Source of the DNA: Pseudomonadota bacterium
GTDB taxonomy: Bacteria; Desulfobacterota; Desulfobacteria; Desulfobacterales; RPRI01
Assembly: GCA_043825875.1 (NCBI GenBank)
Contig: JBDRRF010000018.1
Coordinates: forward strand, 1 to 64,000
Reading direction: 5' to 3'
DNA length: 64,000 nucleotides
In this document: one piece after another, positions 13,729 through 34,690 of the stretch
Layout: each line of letters opens with the position of its first letter
Numbering within the stretch: position 1 is the stretch's first letter
Position numbers and translations under genes: made by a program
Notes under the pieces: model-generated
What the model saw: the letters and a program-made list of their open reading frames with translations, nothing else
Told to the model about the DNA's origin: nothing
Database searches by the model: none

Positions 13729-13760
13729 TGGAAATATACAGATCAGCACAATAACTTTTT
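13729..13760 (+). other. Possible degenerate attI-like leader (partial fourth copy)
   Basis: GAAATATACAGATCAGCACAATAACTTTTT resembles the cassette-sense GAAGATATACAGAAATGCTCAACAACTTGTT at 33782-33812. Confidence 0.35.
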
Positions 13761-13770
13761 ATAAAAAGTA

Positions 13771-14250
13771 ATGGAAGTAAGGAAAATGCTACAAGTTAGA
13801 AAAATCCCTTTAGATATTTTAAGCATCGTACTGTACTGTTTTTCTCTGATATTTCCTGTATTCTATACGGAATCGGTTATGGATCGATGGGCAGGACAAA
13901 TCGAACCAGGCCCAACATGGTACGGCATCGGAACGCTTCTTTTGGGTTGGCTTCCTGCCCTTCGAGATCCATTCCACAATATCGAATACTGGAGTATTTC
14001 TTGGTTTGCAAATCCGTTATTTTTTACTGCTTTTGTATTAATAAGAAAAAAACGTCCGGCATGTCTTCCCATTGCCTTACTCGGCCTGCTAATTGCTTTA
14101 ACGTCATTATTGTTTAGAAGGATTTGGAACGATAAGGAGCCTCCATCAATAATAATAACTTGCCATGGTATAGGTTTTTAGCTTTGGATAATAGCATTCA
14201 TTTTAATAACAATTTCAGCGTTGAAAATATTTATAAATAAGCATTGTTAA
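13771..14250 (+). pseudogene. Membrane protein (probable cassette gene) with premature TAG at 14179-14181
   Basis: W.ANP motif; the frame continues GIGF*LWIIAFILI...KHC* to TAA 14248-14250. Confidence 0.55.
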
Positions 14251-14336
14251 TTATCATATGCGTACCATAAGGGAATATCAGAAAAGATTGATAAAGAGTG
14301 TTAATTCAACAAACTATTTGAGATAAATAAAATATA

Positions 14337-14390
14337 AACCGGACCTGGCTGAAACGCTTGCCAGGCCGGTTATCAGCACCGAATTAAGGC
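14337..14390 (+). other. Degenerate attC-like site
   Basis: AACCGG-A-CCTGGC / GCCAGG-CCGGTT stem with one extrahelical base, between co-oriented cassette-like genes; core boxes eroded. Confidence 0.5.
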
Positions 14391-14399
14391 TATCATGCT

Positions 14400-14900
14400 A
14401 TGATTATAGGACATTTGCCCGTAGGGTATATTACTTCAAAGTTAATTTTCCCTCGCTTTAGCTCACGGTGCATTTCAATAAATGCATTCATATTGGCTGG
14501 CATTTTAGGGGCTTTAGCACCTGATCTGGATATGCTCTATTTTCACCTTGTTGACCATAGGCAACATCACCATCACACTTACTGGACCCATTACCCCATT
14601 GTGTGGGGTATCTTATTGCTCATATCCCTTGTCCTGCTCAAGACAATGCGATTGTCAAACCGTCCGGTTTTTATGTTCATTTTTTCACTCAACGGGCTTA
14701 TTCATATGTTTATAGATACCATCGTTGGTGATATTTGGTGGTTTGCTCCTTTCATTGATAAGCCTTTTGCTCTTTTTACTGTTCCAGCCCTATACAAACC
14801 TTGGTGGCTAAACTTTATTCTTCACTGGTCGTTTGTGCTAGAAATTGTAGCGTGTATTTGGGCTGTTATACTTTGGCGGTTCAAACGTGTACAACTCTAA
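14400..14900 (+). CDS. Membrane metal-dependent hydrolase (YdjM/DUF457-like), cassette gene
   Basis: GH, APDLD, HH..THYP, H...D motifs; stop codon lies in the attC CTCTAAC. Confidence 0.75.
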   Translation: MIIGHLPVGYITSKLIFPRFSSRCISINAFILAGILGALAPDLDMLYFHLVDHRQHHHHTYWTHYPIVWGILLLISLVLLKTMRLSNRPVFMFIFSLNGLIHMFIDTIVGDIWWFAPFIDKPFALFTVPALYKPWWLNFILHWSFVLEIVACIWAVILWRFKRVQL

Positions 14901-14998
14901 CGCAGCCAGGCTGCGGAACTCCGTGGGCTGTCACCTTTTTTGCAAAAGAACGCAAAAAAGTCACCAACCCACTCCGTCCGTAGCTGGCGGCGTTATAC
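14895..14998 (+). other. attC site
   Basis: CTCTAAC ... GTTATAC with long imperfect inverted repeat (GCCAG/CTGGC, GTGGG/CCCAC, TTTTTGC/GCAAAAA). Confidence 0.8.
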
Positions 14999-15013
14999 AT
15001 TTGAAGAACTAAA

Positions 15014-15403
15014 ATGGTTGGACGATTAAACAATATAATAATCATAATTTTATGCTGGATACTATTTACCTTCGTTGCTTTGTGGATGTTTGGTGTATGG
15101 CCAAAAACTATTTTAGCTTGGGTTTTATCTATATTGGTCGGGCCTGTTGTTTTTCTTTTAATTGAGGCATTAGGAGAGGGTTTTTACGAATTATTTTAAA
15201 AAATACCTTTTATTAATAGAACCAGAAATAAGATTGAGATCAAAACAAAAGATAAAAGGACATCTTTATCAAGGATTGGCTATCTTCTTTTTGAGGTAAT
15301 TCTTTTCTTAATTGTTTTGGGAAGCATTCTATATTTTTTGCATAAATATTTTGGTAATAATTTTGAACCAATTTTTATGTTTTTTCAAAAGCACTTTAAA
15401 TAA
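15014..15403 (+). pseudogene. Membrane protein cassette gene with premature TAA at 15197-15199
   Basis: Frame continues to TAA 15401-15403; cassette starts GTTATACAT (14992) and ends ATGTATAAC (15406-15414), which are complementary. Confidence 0.65.
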
Positions 15404-15613
15404 ATATGTATAACAAGCTCTTTTATCCCCAACCGGGCGTCAGAGTCACTTTTTTAAATGCATTTGGAAATCAAGTTTTATAAGGCACAGATAATGGGCT
15501 CATAGCAGTAGATGCCTGACTTATACCTAAAACATCAGCCTTTATAAGAATAAGGGTCCAACAAAATAGTTGCACCAGATAAGCTGGTAAACTGGATATT
15601 ATATTTGTGAATT

Positions 15614-16096
15614 ATGCGTGATAGCGAAAACAAAATATTCCGTTGTGAATTGAAGGCAATTATCCTTCCAGCAATTAAATTTTCCTTTTTGGGTGGTTTA
15701 ATATTATTTGGAGCAATCCTATATAAAGAAAATTTTGAAATAGGCAATAAAATGATTGAAGCCGTTTTAATATTTGAGGCGGTGATGATTCCTTTTATCT
15801 TAACAATTATGCTGGCAGGAACTTATAGCAATATAATTACTCTCGATAGATTTGGTATATCATCCCGTAATCCTTTCTCGAACTCACTTAAAATTGAATT
15901 TATTTCTTGGGAAGCAATAGATAAAGTCTCGCACAAAAGTATCTTTGGATATAAATATTATCTTTTGCAATCAGATTCTTCAGTGAAAACCATATGGATT
16001 CCCATGCGTATTAATAATAAATCCAAATTCTCTGAGACTGTTCGTTTAACTGCTGGGAGCAACCATATTTTTAGTATTGAATTGATGAAGGGTTAA
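15614..16096 (+). CDS. Hypothetical membrane protein (bacterial PH-like C-terminus possible)
   Basis: Two TM segments then ISWEAI motif; followed by an ACATAAC remnant. Confidence 0.55.
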   Translation: MRDSENKIFRCELKAIILPAIKFSFLGGLILFGAILYKENFEIGNKMIEAVLIFEAVMIPFILTIMLAGTYSNIITLDRFGISSRNPFSNSLKIEFISWEAIDKVSHKSIFGYKYYLLQSDSSVKTIWIPMRINNKSKFSETVRLTAGSNHIFSIELMKG

Positions 16097-16121
16097 ACAT
16101 AACAAGTTTTTACAAAATGAA

Positions 16122-16802
16122 ATGCGAATTATAACACTATCAATTTTATTGCTTGTCTTCGAGCTTTTGTCCTTTTCAAATGCTTTTGCACAGACAAACG
16201 CTATTGAAAAGAAATTTAGGGAAGCCGGTCTTATTGATATCCATACGATCGACAGTTCTATACGAGTTGATTTGGTCAATTCCGATCCGGAAAAGAACTA
16301 TTTTCGAGAAAACTTTTACGATAGTTTGAATAAAGCTTATTTGAGAAATGACGTAGCCGTTAGACTATCAAACGCTCAAAGTCTGCTAAAATCGAAATAT
16401 CCCGGATTTTCGTTGCTTGTTTTGGATGCAGCCCGTCCCAGAAGTGTTTCGAAACTAATGTATGAAAAGATGAAAGGAACTAAGTTTGAAAAATACGTTG
16501 CGAACCCCACAAAGGGATCAATGCATAACTATGGAATCGCCGTCGATATTACTATTGTAGATGAAAATGGTGAAGAAATAGATATGGGGTTTTCTCCTTT
16601 TCGAAAAAGCGCTTTTGAACTTTACTGGCAATTTGCAAAAATTAATATGGGATTCAAAATTAGCAAAGAGCAAAAGAAAAATAGAAAGATATTATCTGAT
16701 ACCATGATCAACGAGGGCTTTTTACCTTTGAGCCATGAGTGGTGGCATTTCAACGGAATGCAAAAAGATAAGGCAAGAAAACGATTTAGTATCATTGAAT
16801 AA
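16122..16802 (+). CDS. D-alanyl-D-alanine dipeptidase (peptidase M15D, VanX/DdpX family), secreted
   Basis: DAARP, SMHNYGIAVD, EWWHF motifs; signal peptide. Confidence 0.85.
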   Translation: MRIITLSILLLVFELLSFSNAFAQTNAIEKKFREAGLIDIHTIDSSIRVDLVNSDPEKNYFRENFYDSLNKAYLRNDVAVRLSNAQSLLKSKYPGFSLLVLDAARPRSVSKLMYEKMKGTKFEKYVANPTKGSMHNYGIAVDITIVDENGEEIDMGFSPFRKSAFELYWQFAKINMGFKISKEQKKNRKILSDTMINEGFLPLSHEWWHFNGMQKDKARKRFSIIE

Positions 16803-16815
16803 AAGAATCCGTACT

Positions 16816-17090
16816 ATGAAAAAACAAACACTAATATCGTCGGTTATATTTTTTATTTTTCTTATTACGGTAATTGTATTACACTTTTCCGGCTACTGGC
16901 GATTTGATAATCCGAAAATCGATCAATATCCAATTCGGGGAATTGATGTCTCTCATCATCAGGTCAAAATAGACTGGAATAAAGTAACGAAAGAAGACTT
17001 CATGTTTGCATTCATTAAAGCAACAGAATGAGGAACATTTATAGATCCTGAATTCAAAAGTAATTGGGAGGGAGCATCAAATACCGGTTT
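16816..17090 (+). pseudogene. GH25 muramidase/lysozyme fragment, copy 1
   Basis: RGIDVSHHQ..IDW..V, FAFIKATE*GTFIDP.F..NW; in-frame TGA at 17029-17031; truncated. Confidence 0.75.
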
Positions 17091-17199
17091 AATAAAATTT
17101 AAAGCGTTCTTTAACCACCCAGAAAAACGTCTTGTCAGTATTATTGAGGTTAATCAAGCAACCAAAAATTGACCCTGAATGTAACATATAACAATTATT

Positions 17200-17257
17200 A
17201 CATAACTTTGCTCTTTCAGCCGATCGCTTATCGCGACGACTGAAGAGCTGGTTTGAC
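17200..17257 (+). other. attC site (short type)
   Basis: ACATAAC...GCTCTTTCAG / CTGAAGAGC stem with one bulged T...GTTTGAC. Confidence 0.7.
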
Positions 17258-17270
17258 GCAAGGAAAACCA

Positions 17271-17852
17271 ATGAAATTACTATCAGCACTTATATACATG
17301 GGTTTCGGAATGTGGATTCTTTTTCAAGTAGTAGAAGAACCCCCATTCTGGTTAGGTATCACTGTATGGTTCTTATTAATGTTTTCTTCAGTTGTTATAT
17401 TTAATGAAGGATTTATTAGAAAACTAAAAAGGCAAACTGATAAAGAATATATGAAAGAGCTTTTAGATAAAGGAAAAGCAAAAAAAGAAACTTATAATGT
17501 AGATTCCGCTTTATATTTTGATGATCTAAATACTGGATGTGCTGTACATTTATTAGATATTGGTAATAATCAAATCCTATGCTTGTATGGGCAATATTTG
17601 TATGATTTTGAACCTATAAATGACGATCCAGAAATAAACCAACCAAGAAAATTTCCAACTAAAGAGTTTTCTCAAATAAAGAGGCTTAAAGATAATTATA
17701 TACTTGAATTAATACCTGGCAATGAAGTTGTTGAACCGAAAATAATAAAAGAACCGAAAATCGAAGAATTTTATAAATTAAATCCAAAGTTAATTGATGG
17801 AAAAATTATTAATAAATTGTCTTTTAAAGAGGCTCTATCACTTGTACAATAA
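17271..17852 (+). CDS. Hypothetical membrane-anchored protein, cassette gene
   Basis: AAGGA RBS just after attC core; 2 TM helices plus soluble domain. Confidence 0.65.
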   Translation: MKLLSALIYMGFGMWILFQVVEEPPFWLGITVWFLLMFSSVVIFNEGFIRKLKRQTDKEYMKELLDKGKAKKETYNVDSALYFDDLNTGCAVHLLDIGNNQILCLYGQYLYDFEPINDDPEINQPRKFPTKEFSQIKRLKDNYILELIPGNEVVEPKIIKEPKIEEFYKLNPKLIDGKIINKLSFKEALSLVQ

Positions 17853-17933
17853 GTGTCTAATAATTAAATCAAGATAGTTCGCTTTGCTCACTGGGACGAC
17901 GAAAAGCGTTGACACTTATTAAAAACATTATTC
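17853..17933 (+). other. Degenerate attC-like site
   Basis: GTGTCTAAT...GTTCGCTTTGCTCACTGGGAC...CTTATTAAAAAC; left box roughly complementary to the GTTTGACGC cassette start. Confidence 0.45.
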
Positions 17934-17943
17934 CTGTAGAATT

Positions 17944-18312
17944 ATGCGAATAACGATACTAAGCGTAATATCAATTGTGCTCTTTGCGATGGCAATAATG
18001 TCAGCAACCAAGGCATCAGTATTTGGCCACCCGATACACACCGCAAAGCTTATAGTAATTTTTGTTGCCACCTTCGCTCCGATAATTGTCTGGTTTTTTA
18101 GTTCCAGGGCAAGAATTGCCAATTCTCAAAGATTCGTTACTACGTATTATCGCGTTTCTTTGGTGGCAACGATAGTTGTAATGGCCATTTTGCCTTTTAT
18201 GGATTATTTTCTTAAAGCTCCTCTTCTCTCCAATCGGTCATATGGTTCAGTGCTTTGTAACATGCTGTTTCTCTTTACTGGTCATTATATTTGGAAAGTA
18301 ATTGTTAAATGA
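17944..18312 (+). CDS. Hypothetical membrane protein
   Basis: 122-aa ORF with 4 hydrophobic segments; overlaps next gene (ATGA). Confidence 0.55.
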   Translation: MRITILSVISIVLFAMAIMSATKASVFGHPIHTAKLIVIFVATFAPIIVWFFSSRARIANSQRFVTTYYRVSLVATIVVMAILPFMDYFLKAPLLSNRSYGSVLCNMLFLFTGHYIWKVIVK

Positions 18313-19148
18313 ACCGACGTAAATTTCTTAAAATAGCATGTTATGGAGGAGCTGCGGCGCTACTCGCAAGTTATCCGGTATTTGTTGAACGAAATATTGT
18401 TCAAATAAACAGATACCGTATCCCAGTTCCTTTTTTGCCGAAATCATTTAACGGTTTTCGAGTGGTCCATTTGACTGATCTTCATTTGGGATTTTTAGTC
18501 TCAGAGTCATTTATTGAGGGAGTGATAAAAAAGGCTAATAGTTTAAAACCGGATGTTATCGTTTGTACCGGTGACTATGTGCATGCAAGGAATTCAATAA
18601 AGGAAATCGACATAGTTTGGCCAATTCTATCGAAATTGAACGCTAAGTATGGTGTATATTCTGTTTTAGGGAATCATGATCACTGGGCGGATACAGAGAA
18701 ATCTCTTCAGTGGCTTCAAAGATCAGGACAAAGTGTTAGGCACACATTTAAACCGGTATATAGGGGAAAAGATCGGATATTATTTGGTGGTGCCGGAGAC
18801 TATTGGGAAGATGATTTGAATATTGACCAATGTTTTTCTTCTTCAAATGAAAGCGATTGCAGAATTTTACTAGCACATAATCCGGATTCTATAGACACTG
18901 TATTTAATACTCCGCTATCATTGGTATTGAGTGGGCATACTCATGGTGGGCAAGTATCGATCCCATTTTACGGACCACCAGTACTACCAGTTAAAAATAA
19001 AAGGTACTCCAGTGGATTGATAAAAACAAAGAAAGGCAACCTTTTTATTAGTAAAGGAATTGGTTGGGCAATCTATCCTGTAAGATTTAATTGCTATCCT
19101 GAAATAGCAGTTCTTGAATTGATGAATACAAAAGAATCAGTACTATGA
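18309..19148 (+). CDS. Metallophosphoesterase (YkuE/YaeI-like) with Tat-like RRKFLK leader
   Basis: DLH, TGD, GNHD, HNP, GHTHGGQ motifs. Confidence 0.88.
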   Translation: MNRRKFLKIACYGGAAALLASYPVFVERNIVQINRYRIPVPFLPKSFNGFRVVHLTDLHLGFLVSESFIEGVIKKANSLKPDVIVCTGDYVHARNSIKEIDIVWPILSKLNAKYGVYSVLGNHDHWADTEKSLQWLQRSGQSVRHTFKPVYRGKDRILFGGAGDYWEDDLNIDQCFSSSNESDCRILLAHNPDSIDTVFNTPLSLVLSGHTHGGQVSIPFYGPPVLPVKNKRYSSGLIKTKKGNLFISKGIGWAIYPVRFNCYPEIAVLELMNTKESVL

Positions 19149-19483
19149 AAAAACAAACACAAATATCGTCGGTTGTAATTTTCATTTTTCTTATTACGGT
19201 AATTGTATTATACTTTTCCGGCTACTGGCAATTTAATAATCCGAAAATCGATCAATATCCAATTCGAGGAATTGATGTCTCTCATCATCAGGGCAAAATA
19301 GACTGGAATAAAGTAAAGAAAGAAGACTTTAAATTTGTTGGTAACTGCAAAAAAAGACCTGCGAAGGCAGTACTGTTAAAAGAATTATTTACCTTCATCA
19401 GAGAGATAGAAGAAAAATATGGAATTATTAATTTCGCCCAATTAATTTATGACATAAAATTTAGCCTCAATTTCACCAGATGA
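19145..19483 (+). pseudogene. GH25 muramidase fragment, copy 2 (internal deletion)
   Basis: Near-duplicate of 16816 N-terminus (GIDVSHHQGKIDW) fused directly to FVGNCKKRP...IEEKYG. Confidence 0.7.
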
Positions 19484-19484
19484 A

Positions 19485-20549
19485 ATGGCAAACCGAAATG
19501 TTGGCATAAGAATAATGACATTAAAACAACAAAAAACAAAATGCATGAAGTTTAGCTTCAGATTATGGAGTCTGATCACTGTAGCTGGTGCTATTGCCAG
19601 CGCATTGACCATTCTTAGTTTCTTTGGCCATTTATTTTGGATAGCTGACCTTTTTTCTCATTTCAGGGTTCAGTATTTCATTGGCCTTACAGCTGCAGCC
19701 TTGCTTCTTTTGATTCCCCGGAAACGTAAAACAGCCCTCTGCTTCGCCCTGTTGGCTGCGGTTAATCTGTCTACGATTTTGCCTTTTTACATAGGTCAAG
19801 CAGAACGAGCTTCTGGTTCTAAACCGACATTTCGCGCAATGCTTCTTAATGTGAACACCAAATTAGGAAATGCTGACCGTGTCTTAGCGGTGATAAATAA
19901 ATTTGACCCCGACATTGTTGTGCTTGAAGAAGTCAACACCCGATGGATTAATGATCTTCGCCTGGTCACGAACCGATATGGCCACTCCAAGATCCTGCCA
20001 CGAGGGGACAATTTCGGGATCGCTTTCTATAGCAAGCTCCCACTATTAAGGGCAAACATTGTATATATTGGAACTGCCGGAGTGCCTTCTATAGTTGCAG
20101 AAATCGATGCAGCTGGCGAAAAAGCGACGGTAATCGGTACTCATCCGTTGCCGCCGGTCGGCAGCCGTTATTCACACTGGAGAAACGATCAGCTTGAGAA
20201 AATCTCGGATTTTGTCGGCAGCGTAACCTCACCGGTACTACTCCTTGGTGATCTGAATGTGACACCTTGGAGTCACCATTTTAGACAATTGCTGAAACGA
20301 TCTGGGTTGCGCGATGCTTCGCAGGGTCGCGGTATTCAGCCAACATGGCCAACCCAAAACTGTCTCTTGCAAATTCCAATAGACCACTGCCTTCACTCAC
20401 CTGAGATTGTGATAGTACAAAAAGAGATCGGTCCCCATGTCGGTTCTGATCACTATCCGGTCATTGTTGACTTTATTGTAGAATCAAGCGAAAAAACTGA
20501 TATCAAACTATCAGTTAAGGCAAAAGCCAGGATTGGCCCATTTTTATAA
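19485..20549 (+). CDS. Endonuclease/exonuclease/phosphatase (EEP) family protein with N-terminal TM helices
   Basis: LNV, EEV, GDLNVTPWS, IDH, GSDHYP motifs. Confidence 0.85.
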   Translation: MANRNVGIRIMTLKQQKTKCMKFSFRLWSLITVAGAIASALTILSFFGHLFWIADLFSHFRVQYFIGLTAAALLLLIPRKRKTALCFALLAAVNLSTILPFYIGQAERASGSKPTFRAMLLNVNTKLGNADRVLAVINKFDPDIVVLEEVNTRWINDLRLVTNRYGHSKILPRGDNFGIAFYSKLPLLRANIVYIGTAGVPSIVAEIDAAGEKATVIGTHPLPPVGSRYSHWRNDQLEKISDFVGSVTSPVLLLGDLNVTPWSHHFRQLLKRSGLRDASQGRGIQPTWPTQNCLLQIPIDHCLHSPEIVIVQKEIGPHVGSDHYPVIVDFIVESSEKTDIKLSVKAKARIGPFL

Positions 20550-21005
20550 GTTTATGGCAAAGAGAAAGTTTATCCTATTCTATGGAAATTAGTGATAGCC
20601 CTATCTTTGAGTTTATATTTCGGCTGGATTTATTCATTTATTATAATGGTTACTTTTGATGTTTGTAATTATTTTACAATATGCATTAAACGAATAAAAA
20701 AACCATACCAAACTCATTACACTCGATAAGAAAGAAACATTTTATAAAAACAAATACAATTTTAGTCCTTATTATTGCCGTGGTCATACTGCCCTTTTCC
20801 TCAGCAAATGTTGTGGGAAGTGAGTAAACAAAGCTTCCCCTCGTTGCAAGGGCAAATATCGTTACATCTTGAAATGTGAACAGTCGTGCTTTGTGCAAAA
20901 TCTCAAAAACACAAATTCATGATAACTAAATGATAGGTCAGCCTAAATATATTACATATTCACTATTCAAGATGTTATACCAATTACCAAATGGATATTA
21001 AGTAA

Positions 21006-22409
21006 ATGAGCAAATTGATAAAGCTTTTTAAATGGTCGGCTATTGTTTCCATCTGCATACTGTACGGACTTTTAACAGGATCATATGTTACATTCAGGTT
21101 CTGCATAACAGATTTTCACAAACATTGGATGATTATACATCAAGCTGAATCCGTCTTTTTTACTTTGTTGTTTATTTGTTCAGTGATTTCTATTAATCGG
21201 TATTGCCGGAAAAATAATCGTGATGTCGGAGGATATATCAGAAGCGCTTTGGTTGTGGGATTTGCAGTATTACTTATTATAACTTTGTGTGATGAACCTC
21301 TTATAAAAAGCAAATACAATTGGGAAGATGTTGCAGTTCCGGAAAAAGACTCAGTTGAAAGTTATCAAATCATTGCCGACAACTTCGATCATAAAAACCA
21401 GAAAATCGACGTGGATTTGTCGGAAATCGATATAAAAAAAGCCACTTTAAACCCTTTGGCATATGAAGATGCGATACTTGAAAAATGGAAATCTATAAAG
21501 GAAGCCCGCAGTATTATCGACCAATTGAATGAATTTAATGAAATAGCTGATTTGTCCGAACCTGATGAGACCATTGATATCAACATCATGGAATTCGAAT
21601 TTATTGCCCGAGTTTACAGATTATATGCTTTATTTATGATCGAAAAAGAGGAAAGTATTAAAGGCATCCACGAATTGAACAAAATCCATTCAATTGCAAA
21701 AAAAGCGCTTCCTTACGCAAGATACCTTATTAACAAAACGATATGGATAGTTATCGCAGAAAGAAATATTCAAACTGCGTATTCGATTGCGCGCCGTTCA
21801 AAAGTAGATTTGGATGCGATAGAAGAGCTTAAAAAAGGATTTAAGCCGCTTTCAAAAAAAGAGATTTCATATAAAAACGCTTTTATAACCGAATCTTTTT
21901 TCATGCGAAATGAATCAATTAAGGATATGAAAGACATTGGACAAATGGTTGATGGAATTTGCTCATCATTTATCGCATCAGATATTTGCGATTCCTCCTT
22001 TAAACGCTATTACTTGAAACTGATTTTTCCGGTTATTCTGCAAAAAAACAAGACAGCAAATATCATCACAAAAAAACTCGATTTGCTAATAAAAGGGGCA
22101 ACCCTCCATCCTCCGGAATTTGAAACGGCAGGGCTGTCGCAATTGGATAAACCAGTTTTTAAAAATTCGGGGAGCTGGATTTTATTCAACCTTTCCAACA
22201 CCGATTTAACATTTTATCCTATAAGGGCCGCAAAAACTAAGACCTTAAGTGATATTCTGGCCATCTATTTATATAAAAAAACGGGCGCTGAAATAATACT
22301 GGGTGATTACTTCACCGGCGAAAAGTATGTTGAAACATCCGACCCTCTTTTATATAAAAGCCCAGGTTACGACCAAAAATTAAATACGGAAGACGATGTG
22401 TATTTTTAG
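21006..22409 (+). CDS. Hypothetical membrane protein
   Basis: 467-aa ORF, 3 N-terminal TM helices, C-terminal YKSPG.D...TEDD. Confidence 0.65.
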   Translation: MSKLIKLFKWSAIVSICILYGLLTGSYVTFRFCITDFHKHWMIIHQAESVFFTLLFICSVISINRYCRKNNRDVGGYIRSALVVGFAVLLIITLCDEPLIKSKYNWEDVAVPEKDSVESYQIIADNFDHKNQKIDVDLSEIDIKKATLNPLAYEDAILEKWKSIKEARSIIDQLNEFNEIADLSEPDETIDINIMEFEFIARVYRLYALFMIEKEESIKGIHELNKIHSIAKKALPYARYLINKTIWIVIAERNIQTAYSIARRSKVDLDAIEELKKGFKPLSKKEISYKNAFITESFFMRNESIKDMKDIGQMVDGICSSFIASDICDSSFKRYYLKLIFPVILQKNKTANIITKKLDLLIKGATLHPPEFETAGLSQLDKPVFKNSGSWILFNLSNTDLTFYPIRAAKTKTLSDILAIYLYKKTGAEIILGDYFTGEKYVETSDPLLYKSPGYDQKLNTEDDVYF

Positions 22410-22424
22410 CTCATATCATATTAA

Positions 22425-22557
22425 TTGAAACCGCTGGCGTTAAGCGGGTGGCGGATTTATGCTTAAGACTATTAAAAATTTACATACATAGTTTCAGCTC
22501 CAATTGACAAAAGCCGCAACTTATAGCCGCTCCGCCTTCAACGGCCTTGTGATATGG
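22425..22557 (-). other. attC site (DUF3795 cassette)
   Basis: Minus strand CCATATCAC...GCGGAGCGGC / GCCACCCGC...GTTTCAA; left box matches cassette start GTTATATGG with one mismatch. Confidence 0.7.
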
Positions 22558-22571
22558 TTGCAAAGAGCAAA

Positions 22572-23027
22572 TTAAAGCCATGGGTAACATTTTTCACGGG
22601 CTTTGGCCCAATTATTTATGCCCAGCTCTTTTATTTTTCGGAGGTTCTTTAAAGTAGCTTCACCATGAAATGATTTTAAAAAATCAAATTTATCACACCC
22701 TTCAAAATTTTCGCATTCCCAACACCCTTCTAGAGATTTGTTTTTGACGCATTCAATTATTTTACACGTACCTCCGCATCCATCACCATCTGATCCACAG
22801 GGATTTTCACAGTTGATTTCAGAAATTGCTTTTACTGTAGCACAAAATAATTCGAAGTTTTCAAATTCTTTTGTGTGAATTTTTTTAACATTTGCGTATT
22901 CTGCAAAGTGATTTTTATCGATCTCATTTAGCAATTCGTCAGCCAAGTCCGAGGCTCTGCACTTGTAGCGAATGCAATCTCCACAATAGAGGCCACAATA
23001 TCCTGTAAGAATTTTTTCTTTCATCAT
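22572..23027 (-). CDS. DUF3795-family Cys-rich (Fe-S/Zn) protein, cassette gene
   Basis: CGLYCGDC, C.I..C...K...GCWEC..F.GC; upstream extension of the ORF track runs into attC. Confidence 0.75.
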   Translation of the reverse strand: MMKEKILTGYCGLYCGDCIRYKCRASDLADELLNEIDKNHFAEYANVKKIHTKEFENFELFCATVKAISEINCENPCGSDGDGCGGTCKIIECVKNKSLEGCWECENFEGCDKFDFLKSFHGEATLKNLRKIKELGINNWAKAREKCYPWL

Positions 23028-23034
23028 TTCTACC

Positions 23035-23158
23035 ATATAACCACCATCACAGGTGAGTAGGGTTTGCGGACTTCGCAAATGAGAGTTCAATACAAAAATA
23101 GGCCAAAACTAAGGCGACCCGCCCCTGCAAATCCTTTGTGAATGGTGATGTTATAAAT
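23035..23158 (-). other. attC site
   Basis: Minus strand ATTTATAAC-ATCACCATTCACAAAGG ... CCTGTGATGGTG-GTTATAT; stop codon of upstream gene lies in the left box. Confidence 0.8.
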
Positions 23159-23549
23159 CGTTGCTATTCATTTCCTCATAGAAGGATGCCGCAGCATCAT
23201 ACTCACTAACATAATATTCTTTTTCTCCGATAAACCAAATGCCTTTTTTATCCCTTTTGCTGAACATTTCCTCAGTTAGATTTACTCCTGAGGATACCAA
23301 TTGCTCTCGCACTGAGATACCTCTTAACCAAACGCTATGATCAACTTTATATAAGCATTCTTGTGGATCAGTTTCGTTTTTAGTAAAAAAGTCATATACA
23401 ATTTGCGTAGCTTTTTCTTTTGTCTTTTCAGTGCATAAAAAATTTTGAAAATATCCAATGGAATTCCACTTCTTGTCGGAATTACCAAGCGGCGGCATTT
23501 CACACGGTGTTTTGAAATCAACTTGGATTCGTATGATGTAATATCTCAT
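23151..23549 (-). CDS. Hypothetical protein, cassette gene
   Basis: 132-aa ORF bounded by GTTTATAAAT core and ATTTATAAC attC. Confidence 0.7.
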   Translation of the reverse strand: MRYYIIRIQVDFKTPCEMPPLGNSDKKWNSIGYFQNFLCTEKTKEKATQIVYDFFTKNETDPQECLYKVDHSVWLRGISVREQLVSSGVNLTEEMFSKRDKKGIWFIGEKEYYVSEYDAAASFYEEMNSNDL

Positions 23550-23559
23550 AATCTCAATT

Positions 23560-23730
23560 TATAAACGCTCTCACCAGGCGTGGCTGCAATCTGGTGCAGT
23601 TAATTGTAGGCCCAAATTCAGTATGTCATATATCTGAATCCAAGCATTGGAGGTGCTTTTTTCGGAAGCATCATTTGTCCAGAGGCCTACGCGCCGCTGT
23701 AGCCCAATCCGTGTAGGCGGTTGTTAACTG
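23560..23730 (-). other. Degenerate attC site of an empty or deleted cassette
   Basis: Minus strand CAGTTAAC...GGCTACAG / TGCAGCC, GTAGGCC / GGCCTAC ...GTTTATA. Confidence 0.55.
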
Positions 23731-23757
23731 CCATTATGTTGATATTCTACAGATTCC

Positions 23758-23817
23758 ACAAGTAGTTATAAAGCTCTGGATAACTTTATAAATGTAATGA
23801 TATCCGGAAAGATTAAA
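23758..23817 (-). other. attI-like leader, copy 1
   Basis: ACAAGT..TCTG.ATA.CTT.A..GATATCCGGAAAGA.AAA shared with 33783 and 34630; sits at the head of a cassette run. Confidence 0.6.
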
Positions 23818-23970
23818 GCATTAGCATTCTATTGTTTTTTTGTTTAGTTATGCAAAGGCTGGGGCTCCTTTAACAAAAGAATTTAGGAAGATATATAATT
23901 TACTGCCAAATTATTTGCAATAATAAAATGCTTTTAACTTTGCGTATAATTTCCCTTTAGCTTATAGAAA

Positions 23971-25381: not shown

Positions 25382-25560
25382 AAAAGCCTTATAAGCGAAT
25401 TTATAATTTTACTTAAAACTACATATTATATATAGGTGAACCAAGGAGAATAACTATCAGAATTACCAATTAAAAACTACTCTCAAATTTCTCCTTAGAA
25501 AAGTATAAACGGAGTATCCGATCTAAAATGTAACCGATGAGTTGCGCACTGCTCACTACT

Positions 25561-25593
25561 TCCCCATTAGAAAAGGGGGATAAAGGGGGTTGT
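25561..25593. repeat. CCCC-TT...AAGGGGG palindromic repeat (left of DUF559)
   Basis: TCCCCATTAGAAAAGGGGGATAAAGGGGGTTGT, inverted relative to 25957-25988. Confidence 0.75.
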
Positions 25594-25594
25594 G

Positions 25595-25981
25595 ATGAAA
25601 ATTTTATATAACCCGAAATTGAAGGCTCTATAACGAAAACTCAGAAAGCAAGGTATTTTATCAGAGGTTTTACTCTGGGAACAATTGAAAAATAGAAAAA
25701 TGAAGGGCTATCAGTTTATGAGGTAAAAGCCTATCGGGAATTATATCGTTGATTTTTATTGCAGCAAACTAAAACTGGTAATTGAAATTGATGGAGAAAC
25801 TCATAATAATAGATTGTTTTATGATAAGAACCGACAGCAGGCATTGGAGGCTGAGGGTTTAACTGTTTTAAGGTTTAATGATAAAGATGTAAAAAAAGAT
25901 ATAGGAAGTGTTTTAACGACTATCGAAGGATGGGTTGAAAGAAATATGAAGACAGAACAACCCCCTAACCCCCTTTGTTAA
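25595..25981 (+). pseudogene. DUF559-family (Vsr-like) endonuclease pseudogene
   Basis: MKILYNPKLKAL*RKLRK..SEVLLW..LK..GYQFMR*KPIGNYIVDFYC..KLVIEIDG.TH..YD..R...L...G.TVLRF; in-frame TAA at 25631 and 25724; absent from the ORF track. Confidence 0.85.
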
Positions 25982-25988
25982 GGGGGAA
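25957..25988. repeat. CCCC-TT...AAGGGGG palindromic repeat (right of DUF559)
   Basis: ACAACCCCCTAACCCCCTTTGTTAAGGGGGAA. Confidence 0.75.
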
Positions 25989-26187
25989 TTAAAGCGGTAC
26001 TTCCTTTATTTCGAGATAATTCACTTGGGTTTACCTTTTATATTATAAGGTTGGTCATATTAAGCCCCAATGCGGTTAACCTGTTAGAAACGTATGCACC
26101 ATTGAATTTTAAGCTTTTTTAGTGTACTTTAAAATAATCGAAGATGTTTTATCTTTGAAATAATACAAATACAAACCTGAGGAAATA

Positions 26188-27930: not shown

Positions 27931-27931
27931 T

Positions 27932-28074
27932 GAGCCACTTTCAAAACGTTTCAGTTTGGTCAAGCTCAAGGCGGGAGAAAATTTTAACCACAGGAATACA
28001 TTTAGTATTTCGAGGATTAAAATTTGAGCCCAACGCTTAAGATCGGCCAAAATGGGGCGTTTTGAAACTGGCTC
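27932..28074 (-). mobile_element. MITE-like repeat, family A, copy 3 (inverted)
   Basis: Reverse complement of copy 1; starts 1 nt after glnS stop; flanked by TAAT on both sides. Confidence 0.88.
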
Positions 28075-28092
28075 TAATTATTAGGTGATTAT

Positions 28093-28669: not shown

Positions 28670-28671
28670 AA

Positions 28672-29118: not shown

Positions 29119-29283
29119 AAATATTTGTAATAACAAAAAAGTATATTTTTGCTTGACCTTTAATAATATGTATTTTACATAATCAGATGTAGCTATTGTT
29201 TATCTGCTGTTACTTCAGCGCCATGCAAAGGTTTTGAGATCTTTGACATGAAACAAAAACCGTTTTTTAAAAGGAGATTTATT

Positions 29284-29484
29284 TTGGCGACAGGTATTGT
29301 AAAATGGTTCAACGATAAAAAGGGGTTTGGTTTTATCGAAAAGGAAGAGGGCGGGGATGTTTTTGTTCATCATTCAGCGATTACAATGTCAGGTTTCAGA
29401 ACCCTTGCTGAGGGTGACCGGGTTAGCTTTGATGTAGAAGAGGGCAAACAAGGTCCTGCAGCAAAGAACGTGGAAAAAATCTAA
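29284..29484 (+). CDS. csp: Cold-shock protein (CspA family)
   Basis: TTG start after [23 protein letters not shown]. Confidence 0.95.
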
Positions 29485-29498
29485 TTTTCAGTCATCTT

Positions 29499-29740
29499 AA
29501 AAAGGCATCTTAAATATTTATTATCTGTTAGGCCTATAGCAGGTATAAAAATAAATCTCATAGACGGATAATTCAAGCGTATAAATCTGATTTGTTCTTT
29601 GTTCGATCAGCCTGCTATTATACATGCTTGATCTCTCCCCTTATGCCTTCTGAAGAAAAAAGTGGGTATCTATCCGTAAAGGGAGAAGTGTTTGTTTTAA
29701 TATATTTTATTTTTATTAATACTTAATGGTGCCTTTTTTT
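29499..29740 (+). ncRNA. Candidate large structured 3'-UTR/ncRNA closed by a long-range terminator-like stem
   Basis: AAAAAGGCATCTTAA / TTAATGGTGCCTTTTTTT plus several nested stems seen by eye. Confidence 0.4.
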
Positions 29741-29844
29741 GCTTAAATGTTAGTTATTTATAATTTCCCATCGTTTTTGTTTTTCCTAAAAATGTGTTAT
29801 TTTCTCATACAAGCATGATGCAACTTATTGTTTTTAATCAACTT

Positions 29845-29986
29845 GAGCCACTTTCAAAACGCCCCATTTTGGCCGATCTCAGCGTTGGGCTCAAATTTCA
29901 ATCCTCGAAATACTCACTGTATTCCTGTGGTTGATATTTTCGCCCGCCTTGAGCTTGACCAAACTGAAACGTGTTGAAAGTGGCTC
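29845..29986 (+). mobile_element. MITE-like repeat, family A, copy 4
   Basis: GAGCCACTTTCAAAACG...TGAAAGTGGCTC. Confidence 0.88.
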
Positions 29987-30047
29987 AACTCACATAAAAA
30001 TTTCTTGTCATATAGACGAGCTATGTTCAGTTATTTTTGGGGAAAAC

Positions 30048-31391: not shown

Positions 31392-31422
31392 GTACTCCAT
31401 TTCATAATTTTGGTGCCATATC

Positions 31423-31456
31423 GACCATGAGACTGTGGCACAATAGTCTCATGGTC
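31423..31456. terminator. Hairpin between convergent genes (probable bidirectional terminator)
   Basis: GACCATGAGACT / AGTCTCATGGTC 12-bp perfect stem. Confidence 0.6.
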
Positions 31457-31516
31457 AAATTTACAAATACGTAACCGAATTCATGAAACTCTACTAAGGC
31501 TCCGATAAAGTAACTG

Positions 31517-31939
31517 TCAGCTTATTGCTGCCGTTAATTTATCTCCGTCCACATTGGCAGTATATTGTGTTACCGGATGAGGAGCAGGGCCATAAATTTT
31601 ATTTCCGCTAAAATCATAAGTGGACTTGCTTACGCTGCAACATTGAACAGTATTTGTCCCGGGAACAGGATCAAGACGGCGGTGTCCTACATGCGAGCAA
31701 CGGTTCTTGAAAACATGATGCTTTCCGTCTTCTCCAAGAAATACAAGTATTCGTACCGGAAGGTCTTTTCCTTCCAGACGAACAGCACCACCCGGTTGTT
31801 TAAGCTCAGGAGCTTTATTTAAGTCAAGAGTAAGTTTGCCGCCGGAATAGCTCCAGCAAGTTGAGTCTTTGGGCTCAGATGTGGCAGGACGGCCCAGCAT
31901 ACGTTGAAAGAAACTTCTTTTCAAAATTTTGACATCCAT
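31517..31939 (-). CDS. Rieske-like ferredoxin domain protein (non-canonical ligands)
   Basis: NRCSH...VQCCSV..STYD..G....GPA. Confidence 0.65.
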   Translation of the reverse strand: MDVKILKRSFFQRMLGRPATSEPKDSTCWSYSGGKLTLDLNKAPELKQPGGAVRLEGKDLPVRILVFLGEDGKHHVFKNRCSHVGHRRLDPVPGTNTVQCCSVSKSTYDFSGNKIYGPAPHPVTQYTANVDGDKLTAAIS

Positions 31940-32017
31940 ATTTTTTCTCCTTTAACCCCGATTTGCTTTGATGTTTAGATGATAAGGTAACAGTAAAAAT
32001 TTATTGTTTTCAATGAA

Positions 32018-32446
32018 TCATTTGCTTTTTTTCTCAATTTTTTCTTTAATCCCGGAATCAAATTTTTCTTTATTGATTATAAATCTCTCATGTTTTCCTT
32101 TTGCTATCATATCTATATCATCATACGCCTCTACTTCAAAAACCAAGCGTCGTCTGTCAACCTCGATAAGTTTTACTTTCGCTGTTGCCTCAAATCCTGC
32201 CGGAGTTGCAGCAGTATGCTTTAAATCAAAATGCGTACCCACAGTCTGTTCAGCCGGCCAGTCAAGGTAAGGATTTAAGGCCTTAATACATGCCCACTCC
32301 AAAAATCCAACCAGAAATCCTGTGGCAAATACTTCCGGCATTTGCTGGAATTCTTCAGATTCGGGATAAAGAGCCGGGACAAGCTTTGATTTTGAAATTT
32401 GGAATTTAAATTCGTATTCAATTCCGGGTTTCAGTGTATCTTTCAT
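32018..32446 (-). CDS. FlK-like hotdog-fold thioesterase
   Basis: VFATGFLVG.LE.AC, TVGT....H.AATP.G, G.HER. Confidence 0.85.
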   Translation of the reverse strand: MKDTLKPGIEYEFKFQISKSKLVPALYPESEEFQQMPEVFATGFLVGFLEWACIKALNPYLDWPAEQTVGTHFDLKHTAATPAGFEATAKVKLIEVDRRRLVFEVEAYDDIDMIAKGKHERFIINKEKFDSGIKEKIEKKSK

Positions 32447-32800
32447 TTACAGTCTCCAGTTTATTACTTTTGTTGAACATAATCAGGATATAATGGAAAC
32501 ATTTAACCACGCTTTACCTGCAAAACCTTTATGAGGGTAACTTGCCGGAGCAATCGGGTTAATTATAAGATACTAAAGTATCTGTTTTTCGAATAGTTAT
32601 ATCTTTACAGCAATTTTTCTTTAAAATCAAATATGTTTATATTCAAAAATTAAAGATTGGATAGTCTGCCCCAATTGAAGATAAATAAACTGGCCAAGAA
32701 GTAAAATAAAGAGAGCGCTCCATGTTATGAATATTTGAGTCCTATAAATTTTATCAAGATAGACCCATAAAGGGATTTTGTCTTTTTTCATAATCGTAAG

Positions 32801-32930
32801 GTATGACGGGGCCAGTCACCAAGCGGCGGAAAATAAAGCAAAACGCCTTAAAAGGAAGATAAGTCAATTTGCGACTTACTTCCAAAAACCGCTTGCCATA
32901 GCCGCTCTTTTGAAGTGGCTTTGTTAAGTG
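32801..32930 (-). other. attC site
   Basis: Minus strand CACTTAAC-AAAGCCAC...GAGCGGC / GCCGCTT...GTCATAC; left box complementary to cassette start GTTAAGTG. Confidence 0.75.
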
Positions 32931-33229
32931 TGATCTTTGTTACGGCAGTGCTTTTCAATAAACACTTTCAAAAAGCTATCCGTTTCTTCATTATCGGCTA
33001 ACCAATCGTAGCCAAACCAATTATCCCATCCGGACAAAATTATCATTTTCCCACGATAATAACTTGGATGTATCGCTTGATCTGTAACTGGTGGTATATA
33101 TGTCCCTTTTCTGTGGAAACCATACCTGAGCATCAGCAAAAGGCTGACCTTCCATGAACGCCAAAATGAAAAGGTGCTTATTCTTAATCTTCCATTATGT
33201 GTAGTATGGAACTCAAATCCTTTATCCAT
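32924..33229 (-). CDS. Hypothetical protein, cassette gene
   Basis: ATG 33229 just after the GTTAAGTG core; GWDNWFGY motif; TAA lies in CACTTAAC. Confidence 0.7.
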   Translation of the reverse strand: MDKGFEFHTTHNGRLRISTFSFWRSWKVSLLLMLRYGFHRKGTYIPPVTDQAIHPSYYRGKMIILSGWDNWFGYDWLADNEETDSFLKVFIEKHCRNKDHT

Positions 33230-33238
33230 ATATGACTT

Positions 33239-33351
33239 CACTTAACGCCGCAAATCACGGGCCGGGCGACGAATCACGAAAGCGGTTTAAAAAAAGAAAG
33301 CCTTCAATCACTGAACGCTCCCGCCCGGATCAGTGCATTTGTTTGTTCGGC
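33239..33351 (-). other. attC site
   Basis: Minus strand GCCGAAC-AAACAAATGCAC..CCGGGCG / CGCCCGG..GTGATTTG..GTTAAGT; left box complementary to cassette start GTTCGGC. Confidence 0.8.
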
Positions 33352-33768
33352 TTTCGGGTTATTAAATTCGTCAGCGGTCCACCATATTATTTCCTTGATG
33401 TTCGATTCTGCTGACAAAATATTATTCAAATAATTGGCTATCTCTGTGACTTTTTCAACTGTTCTTATTTTCTTGAAAAACCGTCTGATAAAAGGCTTAC
33501 TTGGCTCTATAAAACATAAGAATCCATCTGGATATTCATCGTAATTACCGCATCCAATCCAGAGCTTAAAACTATCGTTCTTTATTGGGATAACCCAGCC
33601 CCAATCTTCAGAAAATATTTCCTCAACTGGAACAGCATATCCCTTCAGACCGTTGTAAATATATTCAGCAAGTCTTTTGCCCCAGCGATGTGGATTAACG
33701 TCATTTTCTTCACCAGAGTAAGCTGGAAATAAGTCAGATTTGAATTCTACATATGTTTTCATATTCAT
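33304..33768 (-). CDS. Hypothetical protein, cassette gene
   Basis: ATG 33768, 9 nt after the GTTCGGC core; EDWGW motif; reads into its attC. Confidence 0.7.
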   Translation of the reverse strand: MNMKTYVEFKSDLFPAYSGEENDVNPHRWGKRLAEYIYNGLKGYAVPVEEIFSEDWGWVIPIKNDSFKLWIGCGNYDEYPDGFLCFIEPSKPFIRRFFKKIRTVEKVTEIANYLNNILSAESNIKEIIWWTADEFNNPKAEQTNALIRAGAFSD

Positions 33769-33782
33769 TGAAATCACGCCGA

Positions 33783-33842
33783 ACAAGTTGTTGAGCATTT
33801 CTGTATATCTTCATATTTAGAGAGATATCCGGAAAGATAAAA
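33783..33842 (-). other. attI-like leader, copy 2
   Basis: Cassette-sense ...CAGAAATGCTCAAC-AACTT-GTTCGGC (AAC-N5-GTT simple site). Confidence 0.65.
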
Positions 33843-33948
33843 ATTATTTTAATTTTTCTAAACCAATCGACAATCGTTTAATTTAATTTGAAATTACATA
33901 TAATTTATTGGCTAAAATTTCTATAGTATATTTTTATGTGGGATCGTC

Positions 33949-34055
33949 TTATATTTCAGAATCTGTTAGCCCTGCTTCTTTAAATCCTTTTTTCTTAAAC
34001 AGCAGCTATCGCAAAGGCCGCATGTGCTGCCATCAGGATCTGGATCGTAACAGCT
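33949..34055 (-). pseudogene. Duplicated, diverged 3' end of queC
   Basis: SCYDPDPDGSTCGLCDSC.LR, with a 1-nt deletion relative to queC 34795-34902. Confidence 0.85.
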
Positions 34056-34065
34056 GTTCCGGCAG

Positions 34066-34139
34066 GTGTAACACTCAATTAACCGGAGGGCCTGAAACGC
34101 CGCGGTAGCGTTAAAGGCCGGTCAGCTTTAAGTTACAGG
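34066..34139 (-). other. attC-like site after toxin-antitoxin pair
   Basis: Minus strand CCTGTAAC...ACCGGCCT / AGGCC..CCGGT...GTTACAC. Confidence 0.6.
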
Positions 34140-34367
34140 CTAAGCAATTTTCTTTTTTAGAATATCTTTGTCCAAATCAAGGGTGTAAGATAAGATCGTA
34201 TCGATATTCATTTTCTTGGATGCCTTAAGGATTTCAATACCTGTAAATTTTCCATCAGTTGTAGTATCAACATTTATACCCTCTGCGATTTCAATAACAC
34301 CATCTGGTTTTTGATCACCAAGGCTAAGATATAAAGCATCTACTTCTTCATCATAATGTACTTTCAT
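34140..34367 (-). CDS. DUF2283-family protein (putative antitoxin)
   Basis: MKV.YD.EVDALY..L, G...GIEIL.AS. Confidence 0.85.
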   Translation of the reverse strand: MKVHYDEEVDALYLSLGDQKPDGVIEIAEGINVDTTTDGKFTGIEILKASKKMNIDTILSYTLDLDKDILKKKIA

Positions 34368-34591
34368 TATTTCCTTCCTTTCTTCAAAGGATAATTCGTA
34401 ACCACGGTTATAATGTTTCCCTCAACAATTACGACAATCTTTATGGGATATTTAAATCCGGGAACATCTTTGATTAATTCATGTTCACCATCATGCAATT
34501 CCAATCCAATTAATATTTCCTCAATGGTTGATTCCGGTATATTATAAAGTTTTGATCTTCGTTTTGCATGTCGTGAGTAGTGAATTATCAT
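34367..34591 (-). CDS. DUF4258-family protein (putative RNase toxin)
   Basis: YSRHA..R....I....IE, I.VV.......VVT.YP; TAATG overlap with DUF2283 gene. Confidence 0.75.
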   Translation of the reverse strand: MIIHYSRHAKRRSKLYNIPESTIEEILIGLELHDGEHELIKDVPGFKYPIKIVVIVEGNIITVVTNYPLKKGRK

Positions 34592-34629
34592 TTTATATTG
34601 CCCCCTACATCAATTTTCTCACATACCAG

Positions 34630-34690
34630 ACAAGTTAATTGTATAGTTCTGTATATCTTCACAGTTATAGTATTATCAGGAAAGACAAAA
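34630..34690 (-). other. attI-like leader, copy 3 (contains CTGT-N8-ACAG at 34649-34664)
   Basis: Homologous to 23758 and 33783 motifs. Confidence 0.55.

Follow-up and report, generated by a model that had tools for sequence, protein, structure and literature searches.

The DNA analysed here (the window) consists of bases 1-64000 of contig C18 (JBDRRF010000018.1) in a genome of 4.77 Mb and 118 contigs (G000; GCA_043825875.1) assigned to the Desulfobacterales, and the elements in question are three leaders of about 60 bp that stand in front of small genes resembling integron cassettes. It is likely that these leaders are parts of orphan attI-promoter platforms, i.e. dispersed copies of the recombination-site and promoter region of an integron resident in the same genome, and that they are served in trans; one recombinase probably serves many scattered gene-capture sites. 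The units to which the leaders belong are, by sequence comparison, homologous to the region adjacent to an integron integrase gene (intI) on contig C79, and in many of these units, including one in the window, the cassettes begin at the G of a conserved junction. The C79 integrase would be the acting enzyme, and its action on the orphan copies would be in trans.

Direct reading of the sequence retrieved the three leaders as they had been quoted in the original prediction (23758-23817, 33783-33842 and 34630-34690), and a repeat search in the window placed them in a single family (D6), with 3 copies of 63 nt that are 60-79% identical to the reference copy. The view of the 60-bp leader as a free-standing element had to be given up, as alignments revealed a larger unit of about 175 bp, of which each leader forms the 3′ half. 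On the minus strand, in the sense of the genes behind it, the unit starts with a block TTATTGCAAA-N-ATAGATTATATA, which is followed by a variable spacer, a block ..GAATTAAAATAAT.. and the leader proper reading ATCTTTCCGGATATC ... GTTATCCAGAAC ... AAYWACTTG|TT. The conserved blocks seen in the unit alignment include ATCTTTCC, TATCCAGAAC and AAYWACTTG. Three full units of this main type (type A) are located on the minus strand of the window, each containing one leader in the order given above: copy 1 at 23745..23951 (nhmmer 23944->23747, E 3e-31), copy 2 at 33775..33951 (33948->33775, E 1e-38) and copy 3 at 34618..34797 (34793->34618, E 7e-37); all three were seeds of the profile. A partial type A unit at 194..273 on the plus strand comprises the promoter-like half only (profile positions 20-99, nhmmer E 5e-4). 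The partial fourth leader noticed at 13729-13760 is real and represents the 3′ end of a variant unit (type B) at 13600..13769 on the plus strand (nhmmer E 2e-46 as a seed of that profile, alignment with the C60 and C64 copies). Two further full copies of type B were found in the genome by alignment (C60:26357-26530 and C64:1945-2109). Both unit types have the common 3′ end GATATACAG..AATAACTTG|TT and differ in their 5′ parts. Copies 2 and 3 are alike over about 270 bp (33783-34055 versus 34630-34902, 72-84%), including a queC 3′ fragment, because the 3′ end of queC precedes both.

The end of copy 2 had been quoted correctly as CTCAAC-AACTT-GTTCGGC and interpreted as an AAC-N5-GTT layout, of which the GTT end was confirmed but the upstream AAC is not conserved; the conserved string is AAYWACTTG|TT. 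None of the three leaders has an attC-like fold (z -0.92, 0.03 and -1.65 versus shuffles), which is indirect evidence for a double-stranded attI and against an attC, and no conserved partner of the R'' type was found inside the unit by eye. The leader itself was consequently rejected as an attC site on account of the missing significant fold, the missing R'' partner and an inner palindrome that is lost in one unit subgroup. It was also rejected as a known RNA, with 0 Rfam matches in the window at gathering thresholds.

For the genome-wide search a nhmmer profile was built from five seeds, namely the three window copies, C24:19358-19530 and C48:20788-20966. It yielded 19 copies at E<1e-4, 14 of which were not among the seeds, and 27 matches at E<=1. 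In 15 of the 19 copies a co-oriented open reading frame (ORF) starts at most 40 nt from the match end, and behind most copies there is a run of ORFs in the same orientation, 50-300 aa in size, with these sizes varying from locus to locus. Among the 16 units that possess the 5′ part, the 5′ flanks are mutually unrelated, save for the queC duplication in the window. Eighteen of the 19 copies are not located beside an integrase gene.

As for the integrase, PF00589 gave 9 matches in the genome and 0 on contig C18, in line with the earlier statement that the window contains no tyrosine recombinase. Four integron integrases, on contigs C51, C68, C107 and C79, scored above the curated cut-off of TIGR02249. 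The enzyme had been supposed to be encoded elsewhere or to be lost; the four intI genes, one of them of the cognate type, uphold the first of these possibilities and not the second. The search for a profile copy adjoining intI was successful: a non-seed match at C79:67742-67927 (E 3e-9, profile positions 10-178) takes up the space from the integrase ORF (minus strand, 66176-67696) to the first cassette ORF, which starts at 67923 on the plus strand. This unit is directed away from intI and ends with ..GAATAACTTG|TTAGGT. The C79 integrase (IntI; L004:1495-3015) has 506 aa in an uninterrupted frame and scores 383.6 bits against the 265-bit cut-off of TIGR02249. According to Pfam it comprises a Phage_integrase domain and two SAM-like stretches; an N-terminal SAM-like stretch is extra, and a linker of about 100 aa lies before the usual IntI body. 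Its full-length relatives are found in Desulfobacterota, Nitrospirota, anammox bacteria and other metagenome-assembled genomes (MAGs).

In 17 genomes of the genus 29 intI loci were detected, and a full unit is present at four of them, i.e. at the own C79 locus, G016:C192, G008:C38 and G008:C37. At these four loci the unit is divergent from intI and lies about 50 nt from the start of the long ORF, and the integrases have an identical TIGR02249 match pattern from model position 5. One further intI locus of the genus has the promoter-like part of the unit only. Among 80 loci of wider IntI relatives, which include Desulfobacteraceae and Nitrospirota and of which the closest named one is Desulfobacterium sp. 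N47 (89%), unit pieces upstream of intI were found at E<0.01 in four (L063, L064, L057 and L085); the integrases of L063 and L064 are 83% identical to the C79 IntI and among its closest relatives. The position between intI and the first cassette is occupied only by C79:67742-67927 and by the units in L045, L049, L051, L063 and L064, and not by the window copies. By homology, then, the unit is the integrase-proximal and cassette-proximal region of one integron type. As it is located in the gap from intI to the cassettes, it lies where attI and the cassette promoter Pc lie in known integrons, which Cury et al. (2016; PMC4889954) place between intI and the cassettes.

A second set of repeats was observed in the same genome. 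Integrase-less copies (71-83%) of the intI-proximal region common to the C68 and C51 integrons are located at C79:105384-105596, C76:38948-39043, C35:79954-80055 and 78875-78930, and C47:10583-10715, and orphan platforms are therefore not confined to one attI family.

What follows each G|TT in an integron array is already part of the next cassette, and these bases pair with the R'' at which the attC of that cassette begins. For units with an intact 3′ end, the heptamer beginning with the junction G was therefore taken and its exact reverse complement was sought 60-2500 nt downstream. The test was positive in seven of 12 units (C48, C24, window copy 2, C79, C97, C91 and C109), with the complement at most 2.44 kb downstream, versus 8 of 132 in a control in which heptamers were swapped between units. 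In C24, C79, C97, C91 and C109 the complement corresponds to the first seven bases of a canonical attC of 58-62 nt (model R2, E<=1.3e-12). Only the pre-specified junction heptamers are informative, as unrestricted heptamer pairing is at chance (12 pairs versus 8.7 +/- 3.7 in shuffles). Units of relatives, with 130-1500 nt of downstream sequence, were positive in four of nine cases (three of eight independent ones, L063 and L064 being near-identical), and the control gave 0 of 70. In L063 and L064, two Desulfobacteraceae MAGs, the junction of the integrase-adjacent unit reads CTTG|ATGGCC and an attC starting with GGCCATC follows 81 nt later; the crossover triplets at these loci are therefore GAT/ATC and not GTT/AAC.

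The junction is also visible in a comparison of two genomes. G008:C116, from the closest relative, and G000:C48 are about 78-80% identical over approximately 230 nt of 5′ flank and the whole unit, and the identity is gone right after the junction G; one cassette farther down is common to both at 88%. A break of this kind would be expected from cassette turnover at an orphan platform, although the two loci may be paralogous rather than orthologous because their identity is below the 94-98% of the backbone between both genomes. Together with the junction test, this comparison supports the proposed role of the GTT at the unit end as a cassette boundary. The suggestion of dispersed solo attI platforms, as opposed to a plain attC cluster without an integron integrase (CALIN), is backed by the 19-copy profile, the copy beside intI, the junction test and the two-genome break.

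An origin by decay was weighed against these data. The units might be relics of integrons that each lost intI, or scattered pieces of one integron, and the arrays behind them inert; loss of intI or rearrangement has been proposed as an origin of CALINs (Cury et al., 2016; PMC4889954). Such a history would account for the synteny with G008 breaking exactly at unit or array ends (23963, 32649/50 and 34795) and for three of the four window junctions not being GTT, and the genome is rich in dispersed repeats able to drive rearrangement. Against it stand the identical 5′ boundary of 18 copies, 5′ neighbours that are unrelated genes at a distance of 0-50 nt, and the lack of any intI remnant at or near a unit in the TIGR02249 search, the weaker matches being only on C79 (about 181 kb from the C79 unit), C83 and C76. 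Moreover, homologous platforms are followed by different cassettes, and the divergence sets in exactly at the junction G, which points to insertion at an orphan site and not to inherited decay. Decay is therefore considered an improbable explanation for the family.

Still less probable, to a degree that it hardly competes, is a purely regulatory leader, i.e. a promoter with operator or a motif in the 5′ untranslated region of a regulon, without a role in recombination and with cassettes placed nearby by insertion of the attG type. Cassette insertion at GWT sites in genomes is documented (Loot et al., bioRxiv 10.1101/2022.09.11.507474), and many copies have conserved -35/-10-like blocks and an imperfect inverted repeat. 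Copy 3 moreover contains CTGT-N8-ACAG, which may resemble a LexA box. A regulatory element of this kind is difficult to reconcile with the junction complementarity of seven in 12 versus eight in 132, which would be unexpected for it, with the absence of Rfam matches mentioned above, and with the downstream genes, which are unrelated in size and in the window have different or no Pfam families. The leader 12-mer is unspecific, having 102 genome occurrences with <=1 mismatch of which only four are in leader context; as it lies mostly outside that context, it is not a global operator.

According to the platform reading, the C79 integrase would be made from its own locus and would join a free cassette circle to a unit, recombining the folded attC of the one with the double-stranded site at the 3′ end of the other. 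A cut between G and TT of ..AAYWACTTG|TT would place the cassette directly behind the unit, and the conserved promoter-like blocks would then transcribe the first cassettes. The conserved blocks of the unit may thus comprise integrase-binding sites as well as promoters, the promoter role being suggested by their conservation.

Within the window, copy 2 alone passes the GTT junction test. Its junction reads CAACAACTTG|TTCGGC with the junction G at 33784, and the exact complement of the heptamer GTTCGGC, GCCGAAC, is located 433 nt downstream at 33351. This position is the exact start of the best match in the window (33240-33351) of R2, one of two home-made attC models (R1 from 8 sites, R2 from 18), which were built from sites outside the window belonging to one sequence family and gave 18 (R1) and 26 (R2) sites genome-wide at E<=1. 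Cassette 1 behind copy 2 (33240..33783, minus strand) consists of an ORF of up to 164 aa, for which no Pfam family was found, and a 112-nt attC at 33240-33351 (R'' GCCGAAC, R' GTTAAGT); the attC scores 16.3 bits (E 0.11, R2), ends exactly at the independently predicted heptamers and has a fold z of -1.30. The R' heptamer GTTAAGT at 33246 is in turn the exact complement of ACTTAAC at 32929, the start of the attC of cassette 2 (32838..33245, minus strand), which contains a 105-aa ORF (32924-33241) and an attC at 32838-32936 (R'' CACTTAAC, R' GTTTTGC; fold z -1.67). The last strain-specific piece, 32650..32837 on the minus strand, holds most of a 54-aa ORF (32627-32791), and no attC was seen in it.

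Copy 3 begins about 0-13 nt past the stop codon of the intact queC gene located upstream of it (34795-35475; Pfam QueC, E 1e-74). It is followed by a two-gene cassette at 34140..34591 on the minus strand, composed of a 74-aa ORF (34367-34591; weak DUF4258 match, E 0.046, below cut-off) and a 75-aa ORF (34140-34367; DUF2283, E 1e-14), which looks like a toxin-antitoxin pair. The attC-like site of this cassette at 34066..34138 (minus strand; R'' CTGTAAC ... R' GTTACAC) forms a single imperfect hairpin of -12.2 kcal/mol with AAC/GTT forced paired, and its R'' and R' were complementary at six of seven positions in the structural scan; 12 of 200 shuffles folded as well (z -1.76). Its R' is abutted by the 3′ fragment of a second, diverged copy of queC at 33943..34065 (minus strand), which is 83% identical to the queC 3′ end of G008 and 84% identical to window 34835-34902, with the frame compared by eye. 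This fragment may have been left by a crossover in which an attC recombined with a secondary site within a queC copy and platform and cassette were carried along. Excision "outside" the insertion point, possibly reshaping the chromosome, is described by Loot et al. (10.1101/2022.09.11.507474) and could be a source of the duplication of the queC fragment (33943-34065) abutting the attC R'.

Tandem units with cassettes between them occur on C111 (5923/5116), on C66 (11508/12549) and with copies 3 and 2 of the window, and they are what would be expected if the unit were a mobile, promoter-bearing cassette without an ORF, or the 3′ end of one, with G|TT as the R' of an atypical attC and with growth by attC x attC or attC x genome-site recombination. 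The motif GTTA(A/G)A 10-13 nt upstream of the conserved start in copy 1, C79 and C48 also fits such a cassette, as does a second leader-like palindrome between intI and the unit on C79, which could be the true attI. The leaders lack the attC-like fold and the unit the internal R'' that this would require, as reported above; each unit has its own 5′ flank, among them housekeeping genes that end at a distance of 0-50 nt, and no canonical attC was seen before the units in the tandem cases. Inspection by eye for an internal R'' and for a GTT at the 5′ boundary of such a cassette brought nothing convincing. The mobile-cassette explanation is thus regarded as unlikely. Of the tandem arrangements, the one at G000 C111:5025-5923 has two units 800 bp apart around a small two-gene module that is toxin-antitoxin-like by eye, and it is kept whole in G008:C131 (L018) at 88%.

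The original prediction had placed the leaders at the head of co-oriented runs with attC-like palindromes. This applies to copies 2 and 3 and to type B, and only loosely to copy 1, where a distance of 198 nt separates the unit from the start of the first ORF and the palindromes are degenerate. The run behind copy 1 (22572..23730, minus strand) comprises degenerate palindromes at 23560-23730, a 132-aa ORF at 23151-23549 and a 172-aa DUF3795 ORF at 22572-23090; the DUF3795 gene has a homologue of 72% DNA identity about 530 bp upstream of a G008 intI (C100:1317-1768 versus intI at 2297-3256). The run behind type B (13771..20549, plus strand) consists of co-oriented small genes with attC-like hairpins at 14330-14382, 14893-14998, 17200-17257 and 17855-17933. 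The first three of these fold with z of -4.33, -6.55 and -4.83, respectively, with 0 of 200 shuffles as good, while the last two were matched by model R2 at E 1.5 (17200-17257) and 2.7 (17855-17933). GTTATAC at 14992 pairs with GTATAAC at 15408 (by eye). Taken together, structure and heptamer chaining support at least three attC sites on the minus strand and at least three on the plus strand of the window.

Two further observations were made at the plus-strand run. Inside it lies a 208-bp direct repeat (16801-17008 / 19130-19337, 93%), and in both copies a short ORF overlaps the repeat and weakly matches the first approximately 25 positions of Glyco_hydro_25. Just upstream of the type B unit, a short dispersed repeat containing ..CATTCCTGCGAAGGCAGGAATCC.. 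is located at 13372-13590; further copies are found in G008 and on many contigs, and one copy lies directly upstream of the first C66 unit.

Several results weigh against the platform reading. Five of the 12 units failed the junction test genome-wide, and two of these five are among the three type A copies of the window: the junction of copy 1 reads CTACTTG|TGGAAT and that of copy 3 AACTTG|TCTGGT, neither being GTT, and no complement of GTGGAAT or GTCTGGT, respectively, is present downstream. The type B junction in the window reads AACTTTTT with the triplet TTT in place of GTT. No attC match in the window fell below E 0.1 with models R1 and R2 (best E 0.11), which are narrow because they were trained on one attC sequence family; the site at 34066-34138 was missed by both, and for the three minus-strand attC sites the advantage in folding over shuffled sequences is only modest (z -1.3 to -1.8). 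The proposed -35/-10 pair TTGCAA-N17-TATATA was not listed by the promoter consensus scan because the T at position 6 is missing, and the counts of that scan are near chance (8 found versus 5.9 expected, 5 versus 2.4). A look-up of RNA runs returned none with window 32600-35500. The inner inverted repeat of the leader is not kept in the C97/C91/C109/L045/L049/L051 subgroup, which includes three integrase-adjacent units of relatives. Finally, contig C18 begins at window base 1 inside a dispersed repeat, and an integrase gene may lie just past the left end. We infer that window copies 1 and 3 and type B, with their GTG, GTC and TTT junctions, are decayed or inactive. Because the inverted repeat is lost in one subgroup and the leaders do not fold significantly, a hairpin is the less likely reading of this repeat and two protein-binding boxes the more likely one.

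Strict structural scans for attC returned nothing, or only a 142-bp dispersed repeat and a terminator, and a relaxed structural scan of 20-37 kb returned only 34066-34138. The 142-bp palindromic repeat resembles a miniature inverted-repeat transposable element and is located at window 1-139, 838-1024, 27931-28074, 29844-29986 and 56890-57035, the copies being 88-97% alike. It accounts for 447 BLAST pieces genome-wide and is equally abundant in G008, G011, G013 and G016. The repeat is probably the cause of assembly breaks, because 111 of its pieces lie within 300 bp of contig ends. It was considered as an attC family on account of its ends (TCAAAAC...GTTTTGA) and was excluded, since its copies stand alone and are scattered across almost all contigs.

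Synteny with G008 ends at three points: at the 5′ end of copy 1 (23963), at the queC stop codon, where copy 3 has its 5′ end (34795), and at 32649/50. Leftwards from 32649 the window is 97-98% identical to G008:C46 and contains genes for an FlK-like thioesterase, a Rieske protein and RmuC. The region 9776-23962 has no G008 counterpart save repeats and the DUF3795 homologue. At the queC site a rearrangement, and no clean insertion, separates the window from the closest relative; among 15 relatives of the genus no usable empty site downstream of queC was found, the neighbourhood being too little conserved. Additional repeats were observed in the window. Between glnS and a short-chain dehydrogenase gene there is an element of about 480 bp (25552-26034); copies of 83-85% are located at several G008 contig ends, and one copy adjoins the G008:C116 platform. 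In the region absent from G008 there are a 98-bp direct repeat (9624-9721 / 11760-11857, 97%, 2.1 kb apart) and a 90-bp tandem duplication (10686-10865, 90%). At 1866-4184 six tandem copies of a 381-bp unit, 69-77% identical, presumably belong to a gene for a repeat-domain protein.

The arrangement was compared with known systems. CALINs are described as attC arrays without a nearby intI in genomes that may also contain complete integrons, as is the case here, and it was suggested that an integrase encoded elsewhere may excise their cassettes (Cury et al., 2016; PMC4889954). They are defined there without attI or Pc; attI is given as unknown for most integrons, and Pc is stated to be unable to drive a CALIN. 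The window arrays resemble CALINs in this sense. In contrast to that description, each array here bears its own copy of the attI/promoter region of the resident integron, with 18 integrase-less copies in one genome. The classical integron with intI, attI and Pc, such as class 1, is matched by the C79 locus with its divergent intI, the intergenic unit and cassettes starting from G|TT; like an attI, the units end in a GTT-type crossover behind a conserved box and have no hairpin fold. A single attI near the integrase is typical of integrons (Neron et al., 2022; PMC9024848), whereas here the site is multi-copy and dispersed. The attG sites and the single attC sites lacking integron integrases (SALINs) of Loot et al. 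(bioRxiv 10.1101/2022.09.11.507474) likewise involve integrase-driven cassette insertion outside an integron, but attG is described as a loose GWT motif without conserved context, while a conserved 175-bp module homologous to an integrase-adjacent region is found here. A literature search, judged by title or abstract, revealed no paper on multi-copy orphan attI platforms. We know of no sequence similarity of the unit to attI1.

CALINs are reported to be about as common as complete integrons, and attI as unknown outside a few clinical classes (PMC4889954, PMC9024848). CALINs are commonly regarded as debris or as silent reservoirs. As a natural system, the present genome allows the attI/promoter region of a sedentary integron to be recognised by homology; it occurs in about 19 copies, with comparative evidence for cassette entry at orphan copies. 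A farther-reaching idea, which we put forward tentatively and hold to be possible though not the probable case, is that of a distributed integron, in which one integrase works on about 20 attI-promoter docking sites and the mini-arrays are expressed independently next to core genes. Platforms together with cassettes would spread by integrase crossovers between attC and secondary sites upstream of a unit, of which 33943-34797 would be a footprint, and this would be a general architecture in Desulfobacteraceae-like bacteria instead of decay. The natural junction variants among the sites (GTT, GTG, GTC and GAT) provide a panel of sites for one integrase and make the trans model testable. If the platform reading is true, attI could be found computationally in uncultured lineages by way of integrase-proximal sequence that recurs at array heads, the cassettes of a CALIN could be expressed from the promoter of their own platform, and the capture-and-express function of an integron would not be bound to one locus.

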